Source: Candidatus Iainarchaeum sp. (GTDB lineage: Archaea > Micrarchaeota > Micrarchaeia > Anstonellales > Bilamarchaeaceae). Taken from it: DNA of 47,599 nt. The position numbers and the translations under genes were made by a program. The stretch lies in NCBI GenBank assembly GCA_028713495.1, contig JAQTOF010000001.1, positions 1-47,599 of the forward strand, read 5' to 3'. Shown piece by piece: positions 419 through 44,175 of this stretch (the first letter of the stretch is position 1; each line of letters starts with the position of its first letter). The notes under the pieces were generated by a model. It saw only the letters and a program-made list of their open reading frames with translations, was not told the origin of the DNA and searched no databases.

Positions 419-439
419 AAACTTTTTAGTAAAAAGTTT
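419..439. other. Perfect 9-bp A/T hairpin (AAACTTTTT-AGT-AAAAAGTTT) 2 nt upstream of the tRNA-Ser 5' end
   Basis: Inverted repeat read directly. A third arm, AAAAACTT at 444-451, can pair alternatively with 434-439. Confidence 0.5.
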
Positions 440-505
440 GATCAAAAACTTACAGTTAATACGATTTATCAAACTTTCTAAGATAAGACAGAAGCAAGAT
501 TCTAA

Positions 506-40742: not shown

Positions 40743-41459
40743 TCATGCGACAGGTACCTGGAAAAGCGCGCCGACAGCGTAGCCAGCAAGGGCCGCCGCT
40801 CCGCCGATCAGCATCATCTCGAGGCCGCCCTGGAGCCATTTGCCGGAGGTGAGCTGGCTCTTATATGCACCAATCAGGAAAAGCAGGCTGGATGACACCA
40901 CAACCGCAGCGGCCATGGAAGCTGCGATTGGCAGGAAGAAGAACGGGGCAAGGGGGACAAAGGAGCCGATTATGGCGCTGCCACCCACAAGGACGCCCTG
41001 CCAGAAAGGGGACATGGATGCGATAGGATTCGCCAGGTGGAGCTCTTCGCGCATCATGGTGTCCAGCCACACCCTTTTATCTGAGCATATCTTGTCAACG
41101 ACATCCTTGAGGAGCTTGCCAGAGAATCCCTTGTTCTTGTATATGTCCTCTATCTCCTTGCGTTCGGCCTCCGCAAGATTGTCCATCTCGTATTTCTCCC
41201 GTTTCACCTCGGAATCGTAGTGCTCCTGTTCTGCGCGGGAGGATGTATATGCGACCGCGGCCATGCTTATGCTCTCTGCGAATGTCGCGGCAAGACCGGC
41301 GAGGAGGACTATGCTGGTGGAATGGGTAGATACCGCCACACCGAGGATTATTCCTAGCACATTGACTATGCCGTCCTGGCTGCCCAGGATGATATTGCGG
41401 AGTAGCTGGCCCCTCCCGCTGCGGTGCTTTTCGGCATGCACTATTGCTTTGTCCGCCAT
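40743..41459 (-). CDS. VIT1/CCC1-family iron/manganese transporter
   Basis: ILGSQDGIVNVLGIILGVA, a central cytoplasmic acidic helix region and C-terminal TM helices. Confidence 0.85.
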   Translation of the reverse strand: MADKAIVHAEKHRSGRGQLLRNIILGSQDGIVNVLGIILGVAVSTHSTSIVLLAGLAATFAESISMAAVAYTSSRAEQEHYDSEVKREKYEMDNLAEAERKEIEDIYKNKGFSGKLLKDVVDKICSDKRVWLDTMMREELHLANPIASMSPFWQGVLVGGSAIIGSFVPLAPFFFLPIAASMAAAVVVSSSLLFLIGAYKSQLTSGKWLQGGLEMMLIGGAAALAGYAVGALFQVPVA

Positions 41460-41514: not shown

Positions 41515-41694
41515 GGGCTCGTAGCTCAGCAGCAGAGCGCTCCGTTCGCAGGAACTTTTTGGAAAGAAGTTTCACAAAAAACTTGCTGGAAAAGTTTCGA
41601 AAATCGGAGAGGCCGGGGGTGCGAGTTCCGCCTTTTAGTAAAAGACGGCCCAAAACGGGTCGTTAAACGGCGGACGTAATTCCCCCCGAGTCCA
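41515..41694 (+). tRNA. tRNA-Ala (anticodon CGC) interrupted by two BHB introns (41551-41603 at position 37/38; 41626-41680 at position 59/60)
   Basis: Acceptor GGGCTCG/CGAGTCC gives G3:U70, with discriminator A. Anticodon stem is CTCCG/CGGAG with loop TTCGCA|T, and T stem is GGGGG/CCCCC. Both insertions fold as strict helix-bulge(3)-helix(4)-bulge(3)-helix motifs. Removing them leaves a 72-nt cloverleaf. Confidence 0.8.
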
Positions 41695-41798
41695 TTTCTA
41701 ATTTTATTACCATCGCTTCCATGTCTTTATGCGGTTATGATGATAAGAGGTATTATTGATTGGTGATAGGAACGTCATTGCTGAACCGCACTGATGAT

Positions 41799-42326
41799 AT
41801 GGAAAAGAAGACCGTGGGCATCCTGCAGATCGCGTTCGCTGTCGCTATAGCTGCGGCAGTGCTCTATTTCTCTGCAGACATAGCGTCCCTCGGCACCTAT
41901 GGATACATCGGCGCTTTCCTGATAGCGCTCCTGAGCTCCGCCACCATATTCTTCCCTGCGCCCGGGTGGGCGGTGGTGGTGGCGATGAGCGCCACCCTCA
42001 ATCCGATAGCCCTTGGGGTTGTGGCTGGGATAGGATCTGCCATCGGGGAGCTCACAGGATACGTGGCTGGCGATGGCATACGTGGCATGATGAATGATCG
42101 GATAAAGGAGATGAAGAAGATAGAAGCGCTGGTGCAGAGATACGATGTGCTCGCCATATTCGTCCTTGCTTTCATCCCTAACCCGTTGTTCGATGTGGCT
42201 GGATTGGCGGCAGGCGGACTGAAGATCTCCTGGTGGCGCTTCGTCCTGGCCTGCGCAGCAGGAAGGGTACTGAGATATATCCTCCTCGCGATGATCGGCG
42301 CATTCGCGGTCAGTTTGCTGACTTGA
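41799..42326 (+). CDS. DedA/VTT-domain (SNARE-associated) membrane protein
   Basis: YIGAFLIALLSSATIFFPAPGWAVVVAM and GIGSAIGELTGYVAG motifs. I chose the ATG at 41799 over the TTG at 41760. Confidence 0.8.
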   Translation: MEKKTVGILQIAFAVAIAAAVLYFSADIASLGTYGYIGAFLIALLSSATIFFPAPGWAVVVAMSATLNPIALGVVAGIGSAIGELTGYVAGDGIRGMMNDRIKEMKKIEALVQRYDVLAIFVLAFIPNPLFDVAGLAAGGLKISWWRFVLACAAGRVLRYILLAMIGAFAVSLLT

Positions 42327-43437: not shown

Positions 43438-44175
43438 CTATCCTGACAAAGTAAAATAAATCCTCCTATTCTCCTTGCCTTTGTTCTCGAGCTTCATTAT
43501 ACCGATCTTTCCGACCTCTTTCAGGCTCTTCACATGGGTCCCGCCGTCGGCCTGAAGGTCTATCCCGGGGATTTCCACTATGCGGAGGATAGTTATGGAA
43601 GGAGGCAATGCTCCGGCCAGCTTGACAACCCCGGGTATCTTCATGGCCTCTTCCCTCGGCAAATCGTATATCTTGAGTTCCACACCGGTCGCGAGCGCTT
43701 CATTCGCCTTGTTGACCATGGTATCGAACATCGTCCTGTCGAAGTTCTCCATCGCGAAATCGAATCTTGTCTTTTCTTCTTCCAGCTGGTTGCCAGTGAT
43801 GAGGATGTTGAGCTCGCGGTGCATGACGGCTGAGAGCACATGGGCAGCGGTGTGCATGCGCATGAGCTTGTAGCGCCGTCCCCAATCCAAAACGCACTTT
43901 ACCTTCGCTCCGCTCGCGAAATCAGCGTCCCGGTCAAGCTCGTGGATGATCTTCCCTTCTTTCTTCATCACATTGACCACGCGGAACTCGCTTGCGCTAT
44001 CAACAACATCACCCGCACTCGCGCCGACAATGATCTTGCCGGTATCTGTGGGCTGGCCCCCTCCTCGCGGATAGAAAATAGTCTGGTCCAGCATGACTTC
44101 CTTGCCGCTGACCGATTGCACTGCAGCCTCGCATTCCCTGAGGTAGCTGTCCTGAAGATAAAGTGGGATTGTCAT
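43438..44175 (-). CDS. alaX: AlaX-type alanyl-tRNA editing protein
   Basis: LYLQDSYL, FYPRGGGQPTD, MHTAAHVL and DGGTHV motifs of the AlaX-M/AlaRS editing domain. Confidence 0.85.
   Translation of the reverse strand: MTIPLYLQDSYLRECEAAVQSVSGKEVMLDQTIFYPRGGGQPTDTGKIIVGASAGDVVDSASEFRVVNVMKKEGKIIHELDRDADFASGAKVKCVLDWGRRYKLMRMHTAAHVLSAVMHRELNILITGNQLEEEKTRFDFAMENFDRTMFDTMVNKANEALATGVELKIYDLPREEAMKIPGVVKLAGALPPSITILRIVEIPGIDLQADGGTHVKSLKEVGKIGIMKLENKGKENRRIYFTLSG

Follow-up and report, generated by a model that had tools for sequence, protein, structure and literature searches.

The alanine tRNA genes of a clade within the Micrarchaeota display a strict two-site covariation at the elbow, wherein G18:U55 gives way to A18:G55 while the adjoining G19:C56 pair is retained. 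The contact between G18 and Psi55 is taught as one of the invariant elements that lock the L shape of cytoplasmic tRNAs, with Psi55 itself counted among the universal modifications; in this archaeal clade, an entire isoacceptor family replaces that contact with perfect covariation at the two sites. The gene under study, tRNA-Ala(CGC), lies at positions 41515–41694 (+ strand; 180 nt) of a 47,599-nt stretch of DNA from a Candidatus Iainarchaeum sp. (hereinafter the window), which belongs to a genome assembly of 1.02 Mb in 78 contigs with a completeness of 90%. We consider it probable that this is a functional tRNA whose 180-nt precursor is spliced by an epsilon2-type EndA and RtcB, and that its A18:G55 combination is a compensated, near-neutral swap of the UGNRA type. 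The intron architecture of the gene mainly extends the knowledge gained from ARMAN-2; the elbow is a conserved natural variant with structural precedent outside tRNA.

The gene occupies a 300-nt gap between a VIT1-family gene (40743–41459, −) and a VTT/DedA-type gene (41760–42326, +), and consists of three exons of 36, 22, and 14 nt separated by two introns (Table 1). The center of a putative TATA-like promoter box lies about 31 nt 5' of the first tRNA base, with similar A/T boxes at an equal distance from most other tRNA genes in this genome, and T tracts similar to the one that follows exon 3 are likewise seen 3' of other tRNA genes. The CCA end is not encoded. Joining the exons yields a 72-nt RNA that ARAGORN calls as tRNA-Ala(cgc), with a 7-bp acceptor stem, the D, anticodon, and T arms, the G3:U70 pair, A73, and the anticodon CGC. 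T8, A14, G15, C48, T54, A58, G19, and C56 are all present, and from these bases the U8:A14, G15:C48, U54:A58, and G19:C56 contacts would appear to be kept; in the place of the G18:U55(Psi55) contact stand A18 and G55. The unspliced gene receives no call from ARAGORN, with or without intron search, or from Rfam at the gathering threshold; nor does ARAGORN call it when just one of the two introns is removed. A second tRNA-Ala(CGC) was not found elsewhere in the 90%-complete genome.

Table 1. Features of the tRNA-Ala(CGC) gene and its flanks (window positions)
Feature	Position	Strand	Content or basis
TATA-like box AATTTAATAA	41479..41488	+	read from the sequence; putative promoter
Exon 1	41515..41550	+	acceptor 5' strand, D arm, anticodon stem 5' strand, loop bases 32–37 including anticodon CGC
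Intron 1, 53 nt, canonical 37/38 site	41551..41603	+	strict hBHBh' motif
Hairpin + CAAAAAC module inside intron 1	41556..41582	+	repeat search of the genome
Exon 2	41604..41625	+	base 38, anticodon stem 3' strand, variable loop AGGCC, T stem 5' strand, T-loop bases 54–59 (TGCGAG)
Intron 2, 55 nt, 59/60 in the T loop	41626..41680	+	strict hBHBh' motif
Hairpin + CAAAAC module inside intron 2	41633..41656	+	repeat search of the genome
Exon 3	41681..41694	+	T-loop base 60, T stem 3' strand, acceptor 3' strand with U70, discriminator A73
T-rich tract TTTCTAATTTTATT	41695..41708	+	read from the sequence; likely transcription stop

Both introns were assessed against a strict bulge-helix-bulge (BHB) definition, i.e., a 4-bp helix with a 3-nt bulge at either end, the bulges lying on opposite strands, and flanking helices beyond them, with the cut placed after the second base of each bulge. 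Intron 1 has the outer helix CTCCG/CGGAG (5 bp), the central helix TTCG/CGAA (4 bp), the bulges CAG and AAT, and the inner helix GAACTTTT/AAAAGTTT (9 bp). In intron 2, the corresponding elements are GGGGG/CCCCC (5 bp), TGCG/CGTA with one G.U pair (4 bp), AGT and ATT, and TCCGCC/GGCGGA (6 bp), with its central helix drawing upon T-loop bases U54–G57. A strict 3-4-3 scan of the 180 nt returns exactly these two motifs; BHBs of this quality arise at 0.009 per dinucleotide shuffle, and two together were seen in 0 of 1000 shuffles. The unconstrained minimum free energy fold of the 180-mer contains the acceptor, D, anticodon, and T stems along with the complete BHB of intron 2, and the conformer with the BHB of intron 1 lies 2.1 kcal/mol above that minimum. 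The initial annotation had placed the gene and its two strict BHB introns, the second of them at 59/60, and had proposed that cuts after the second bulge base restore a 72-nt tRNA with G3:U70; the sequence, the scan, and the ARAGORN call on the spliced 72-mer bear this out in full. Where it had presented the introns as the main curiosity, the emphasis does not hold: multi-intron tRNAs are on record for ARMAN-2 (Candidatus Micrarchaeum acidiphilum), including one with two introns in a single T loop (PMC3239211), and since tRNAs with several introns and with 59/60 introns have thus already been published for Micrarchaeota, this part of the gene is ordinary.

The genome encodes the enzymes that such a precursor would call for. 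Its EndA is a 403-aa protein, residues 16–403 of which align to residues 5–387 of 4FZ2_A, the ARMAN-2 epsilon2 EndA (E = 2.4e-131), and Pfam recovers an N-terminal domain followed by two catalytic-domain stretches. Determination of the EndA type, which had been suggested as a check in the initial annotation, hence gives a predicted epsilon2-type enzyme of three units collinear with 4FZ2. An RtcB ligase (545 bits) is also encoded; by gene content, an endonuclease for non-canonical sites (the epsilon2 EndA orthologue) and a 3'-P ligase (RtcB) are thus both at hand. The epsilon2 EndA has been found to cut 37/38 and 59/60 substrates in vitro (PMC3239211). A second EndA-like protein of 165 aa is encoded on contig 37 (3667–4164, −; locus L174, 1459–1956), with a Pfam catalytic domain at 46.7 bits and the M. 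jannaschii alpha4 EndA (1A79) as its best PDB match; judged by eye, it may be devoid of the catalytic His.

The elbow sets these genes apart. The T loop of the spliced product reads TGCGAGT and the D loop, in exon 1, reads AGCAGCA, as the initial annotation had reported, with exon 1 agreeing with intronless orthologues and paralogues. On the strength of an Rfam alignment of a paralogue and of sister taxa with the 7-nt loop AGCGGTA, the D-loop bases are numbered A14 G15 C16 A18 G19 C20 A21. The non-standard D/T-loop contact that had been anticipated hence takes the form of A18/G55 in place of G18/U55. The associated claim that the D loop lacks the GG pair stands in part: G18 is indeed missing, but G19 is retained in the alignment with sister taxa. 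Similarly, the description of the elbow as atypical captures its unusual character, but what is seen in 51 genes is a strict covariation of two sites rather than a loose collection of oddities. Comparison with the other tRNA-Ala isoacceptors, another check proposed at the outset, uncovers the same elbow in both: the intronless tRNA-Ala(GGC) (contig 6) and tRNA-Ala(UGC) (contig 44) of the genome both have the T loop TGCGAGT, with D loops AGTAGCA and AGCAGCA, respectively. The swap is confined to tRNA-Ala within the genome, with 38 other T-arm hairpins carrying TTCRA. A tRNA-His(GUG) gene (contig 64, 896–967, −) has a T loop TCCGATT with C55 instead of U55, and a D loop with the normal GG.

Beyond this genome, the loops AGYGGTA and TTCRAAT characterize tRNA-Ala in the sister families within the order, and a single genus from the same family has them as well. 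Given the equal loop lengths of the two forms and the Rfam alignment, the change can be resolved into two substitutions, A for G18 and G for U55, that leave G19 and C56 intact. Among 51 Micrarchaeota tRNA-Ala genes, three of which were read by hand, 43 have A18 G19 with G55 C56, 8 have G18 G19 with U55 C56, and none is mixed. A pattern search for the variant T arm found it in 43 of 75 other genomes of the family, with at most 3 copies in each, in 1 of 17 of a second family, and in 0 of 308 from the rest of the phylum, the reversed-pattern control yielding 0 matches; these counts are lower bounds, as the pattern misses genes whose T loop is interrupted by an intron. A genome from another family of the order, G114, has variant-elbow tRNA-Ala genes (L176, L179) that are 89–94% identical to the tRNA-Ala(UGC) query from the genome studied here, with the variant elbow being absent from the other searched genomes of that family; transfer, taxonomic misplacement, or a second origin could underlie this case.

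A BLAST search with the spliced 72-mer against 40 related genomes produced matches in 23 of 24 species of the same genus, from which 18 CGC orthologues were extracted with mature sequences 0–7 positions away from this gene. The commonest change among them is a compensated one, C6:G67 to U6:A67 (11 genes). Thus, across the 18 orthologues the exons are conserved with compensatory change; intron number, length, and sequence vary freely: from 0 (in G005, locus L001) to 4 introns per gene, with lengths of 29–191 nt and sequences that are often unrelated. Intron sites among the relatives are 15/16, 16/17, 19/20, 37/38, and 59/60, along with a further site at 58/59 in L028 and L029 assigned solely by the BHB call; genes with an anticodon other than CGC, as well as the two D-loop introns of L030, were read by hand. 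The intronless orthologue from a sister species, L001, lends indirect support to the spliced form: it differs from the predicted product at 2 of 72 positions, which together make up the compensated 6:67 acceptor pair, and it shows exactly the junction sequences predicted for tRNA-Ala(CGC). Rfam RF00005 scores it at 61.7 bits (threshold 29) and the paralogue L011 at 63.4 bits. Individual introns can be followed between species. Homologues of intron 1 are found at the same site in G017 and G010 (L021, L026), with G017 (L021) combining identical exons and the intron 1 homologue with the lack of a T-loop intron. The 59/60 intron of G023 (L031), also 55 nt long, is a homologue of intron 2, and its five differences all preserve pairing, e.g., CGTA to CGCA in the central helix. 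The central helix of every 59/60 intron pairs with the T-loop bases UGCG, indicating that these introns are adapted to the variant loop. The locus L030 (G015 contig 54, 14629–15034) is a tRNA-Ala(CGC) gene apparently with four introns, at 16/17, 19/20, 37/38, and 59/60; a 2-nt micro-exon AG (A18 G19) lies between its D-loop introns, whose 3' ends are the same as those of single introns at these sites in other species. This dense series of presence and absence, in which a single 72-nt gene holds anything between 0 and 4 introns, is a resource for the study of intron gain and loss.

Both introns harbor copies of a repeated module, a near-perfect hairpin (N4-5, T4-6, a 3-nt loop, A4-6, N4-5) followed by (C)CAAAA(A)C. 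The 1-Mb genome has 20 copies: in addition to the two intronic ones (Table 1), they lie at 301–326 (−) and 423–449 (+) of the window and in 16 further places of the genome. At least 14 copies are inside tRNA introns or abut mature tRNA ends, their positions having been compared with the ARAGORN list by eye, and the copy in intron 1 is identical at 26 of 32 positions to the 5' flank of tRNA-Ser at 420–451. The occurrence of the module in either orientation relative to the tRNA suggests that it has spread at the DNA level. About 1.7 kb downstream of tRNA-Ala(CGC), the window also encodes an AlaX-like free-standing editing protein of 245 aa (43438–44175, −), in which Pfam detects the end of tRNA-synt_2c and tRNA_SAD, with no C-Ala domain. 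Two loci, L039 (125–183) and L007 (− strand, 1397–1455), hold a partial copy of the tRNA-Ala 5' end (GGGCNTGTAGCTCAG...) about 59 nt upstream of the gene, which looks like a leader-borne duplicate of exon 1.

The swap also recurs independently outside the archaea, in tRNA-Ala(CGC) of Patescibacteria and in the tRNA-like domain of tmRNA. In one group of Patescibacteria, the tRNA-Ala(CGC) orthologues, which are 87–97% identical to each other, have AGTAGTA with TGCGATY in five genomes and AGTGGTM with TTCGATT in two; positions 18 and 55 covary strictly in these 7 genes, and are among the 3 positions at which one pair from either group (L180 and L182) differs. The tRNA-Ala(GGC) found next to the variant tRNA-Ala(CGC) is canonical. 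The T loop UGCGA is likewise present in tmRNAs from Acidobacteria, Elusimicrobia, Planctomycetota, and several CPR groups (L043, L059, L064, L078, L081, L090, L098, L101, and L120). In these loci other than L081 and L101, where the ARAGORN 5' end aligns with ...GGAUUCGAC, the usual tmRNA sequence as in E. coli, GG gives way to AG in the analogue of the D loop. The exact pattern used to scan globally for the variant T arm called for a G5/C5 T stem and therefore favored tRNA-Ala and tmRNA, so that the matches are a biased sample of the tRNAs with G55. Among the matches listed (at least 120), most are non-tRNA RNAs, i.e., cobalamin riboswitches, group II introns, and tmRNAs, and many are actinobacterial and acidimicrobial, two of these many having been identified (L041, L050). 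The hairpin GGGGG-UGCGANU-CCCCC occurs in cobalamin riboswitches, group II introns, and tmRNAs. The tRNA-Ala elbow described here differs from those of bacterial tRNAs in its archaeal setting; it extends to every alanine isoacceptor of the genome and occurs together with an intron in the T loop whose central helix pairs with the variant loop.

In a canonical tRNA, G18 inserts between bases 57 and 58 and touches Psi55. A different solution is known from FMN and cobalamin riboswitches, in which the T-loops read UGNRA in 88.7% of the cases and the intercalating base is A in 99.96%; this A slots in between the fourth and fifth bases of the loop and forms two hydrogen bonds with the position-2 G, and the tRNA T-loops are set apart in the same preprint from the Batey lab by a U at position 2 (bioRxiv 10.1101/2022.12.26.521914). 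The loop UGCGA of the tRNA-Ala genes fits the UGNRA sequence, and A18 replaces G18 whenever G55 replaces U55. By analogy, A18 would stack between loop positions 4 and 5 and bond to the sugar edge of G55. No description of a natural tRNA with A18 and G55 was found in a literature search that was not exhaustive, in which U55G and G18A surfaced as laboratory mutants only.

The observed anatomy, conservation, covariation, and enzyme complement suggest how the gene might be transcribed, spliced in vivo, and folded. In this tiny, symbiotic archaeon of the Micrarchaeota (DPANN), tRNA-Ala(CGC) would have a TATA-type promoter of its own that gives rise to a 180-nt precursor; the epsilon2-type EndA would cut the BHBs at 37/38 and 59/60, RtcB would join the three exons into the 72-nt tRNA, and CCA would be added afterwards. 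The mature elbow would keep G19:C56 and U54:A58 and use A18:G55 in the place of G18:Psi55, with UGCGA acting as a UGNRA-type loop like those of riboswitches, group II introns, and tmRNA, i.e., with the A lodged between loop positions 4 and 5 and hydrogen-bonded to the position-2 G. With U55 replaced by G, there is no U for conversion to pseudouridine-55. The swap is likely to have arisen in an ancestor of a part of this archaeal family, with all three alanine isoacceptors carrying it; as these share their acceptor, D, and T arms, a single ancestral event is enough for all three. Most likely, then, A18:G55 is a structurally compensated replacement and, one may suppose, a near-neutral one. In the yeast SUP4oc tRNA, no single mutation in G18-U55 is tolerated (PMC4117946), and hence a matched double change is what is expected of a compensated path. 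G18 of tRNA-Ala is, moreover, a determinant for the C-Ala domain of AlaRS in C. elegans (PMC10485164); taken with the intolerance seen in SUP4oc, this implies that the swap may not be neutral for every partner. In decoding, tRNA-Ala(UGC) could read GCG codons, and the CGC gene is in that sense not strictly required.

The same elbow might instead have been shaped by selection, as an alanine-linked trait of an episymbiotic archaeal clade that emerged in parallel in tmRNA and in CPR tRNA-Ala. It could then reflect either co-evolution with an elbow-binding C-terminal domain of AlaRS or AlaX, or an escape from an enzyme that recognizes the standard T-loop or elbow, e.g., a tRNA-cutting nuclease of host or viral origin, or the Psi55 or other modification enzymes. 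The limitation of the swap to tRNA-Ala within the genome, its maintenance in all three isoacceptors across several genera, the reading of G18 by C. elegans C-Ala (PMC10485164), its presence in several phyla in tmRNA, which is also charged by AlaRS, and the proximity of the AlaX-like gene would all be in keeping with such selection. Against this, the same patescibacterial cell has the variant elbow in tRNA-Ala(CGC) and the canonical one in tRNA-Ala(GGC), so that one AlaRS handles both; the 909-aa AlaRS of the genome studied here is normal, with a DHHA1-type domain at its C terminus, and the swap leaves G19:C56, on the outer face of the elbow, as it was. Further, the association with alanine may be due to ascertainment, given the T stem demanded by the global pattern, and the shared arms leave a single ancestral event sufficient for the three Ala genes. 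We regard selection as an unlikely account; were it true, a riboswitch-type T-loop in a tRNA, with Psi55 abolished and recognition by elbow factors altered, would confer a private identity or immunity.

That the gene is instead a decaying or unexpressed copy, with the introns and odd loops representing damage, is very improbable. U55 and G18 are otherwise near-universal in tRNA, and their loss would suit a pseudogene, as would the failure of ARAGORN and Rfam to call the unspliced gene and the potential coverage of GCG by wobble of tRNA-Ala(UGC). Yet in 18 species the exons show little or no difference against a background of diverging introns, the changes at 6:67 are compensated, both BHBs are perfect, and the promoter box and T tract are present. 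Two of the signs of a pseudogene that the initial annotation had itself named did not materialize: in place of rejection by a covariance model, the intronless orthologue L001 is accepted well above the threshold, and in place of a canonical tRNA-Ala(CGC) elsewhere, none was found in the 90%-complete genome. With no relaxation of the exons, loss of pairing, or functional copy elsewhere in evidence, the pseudogene reading is largely refuted; it fails because all three alanine isoacceptors, those for GGC and UGC being encoded without introns, share this elbow, as do dozens of related genomes. Scarcely credible, too, is a different register of the splice sites that would render the true mature T loop standard. 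A plain alignment does leave a one-base ambiguity of the border at 36/37, but the BHB geometry fixes the cuts, no alternative register gives TTCRA, and the intronless orthologues and paralogues read exactly TGCGAGT and AGCAGCA.

If the gene is, as we favor, a functional spliced tRNA with a compensated elbow, the swap links two classes of T-loops that were held distinct in the Batey-lab preprint (10.1101/2022.12.26.521914). It also offers a natural system for gauging the tolerance of the enzymes that read the elbow, namely the C-Ala domain of AlaRS, Pus10/Cbf5, RNase P, the CCA enzyme, and the ribosome. On the practical side, tRNA detectors lose about 10 bits on the variant and miss the genes altogether when introns are added; hence, the alanine tRNAs of these genomes may easily go unannotated.

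Among known systems, one comparison is with the canonical tRNA-Ala of sister Micrarchaeota genera (L161–L164, L169, and L177), which share with the variant genes G3:U70, A73, the 7-nt D loop, the 5-nt variable loop, and the GGGGG/CCCCC T stem at an overall identity of 72–86%, but have G18 (AGYGGTA) and U55 (TTCRAAT) and exceed the variant genes by about 10 bits with RF00005 (73.3 versus 61.7–63.4). As regards splicing, the parallel is with ARMAN-2 (Fujishima et al. 2011, PMC3239211; structure 4FZ2, PMC3488258), a member of the same phylum with introns at 37/38 and 59/60, T-loop introns with strict hBHBh' motifs, and a three-unit endonuclease of about 400 aa that has an orthologue here. In contrast to ARMAN-2, the present case comes from another family of the phylum and concerns another tRNA, a repeated hairpin module sits in both introns of tRNA-Ala(CGC), and one relative of this gene has four introns where a maximum of three per gene was given for ARMAN-2 (PMC3239211). 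With the UGNRA T-loops of FMN and cobalamin riboswitches, group II introns, RNase P, and rRNA (10.1101/2022.12.26.521914), the tRNA-Ala elbow shares a loop, UGCGA, that fits the consensus, an A as the partner base, and a seven-nucleotide loop following a G-C rich stem. Unlike them, it is placed in a tRNA elbow, has the D loop as its receptor, and still engages the C at position 3 in the G19:C56 pair.
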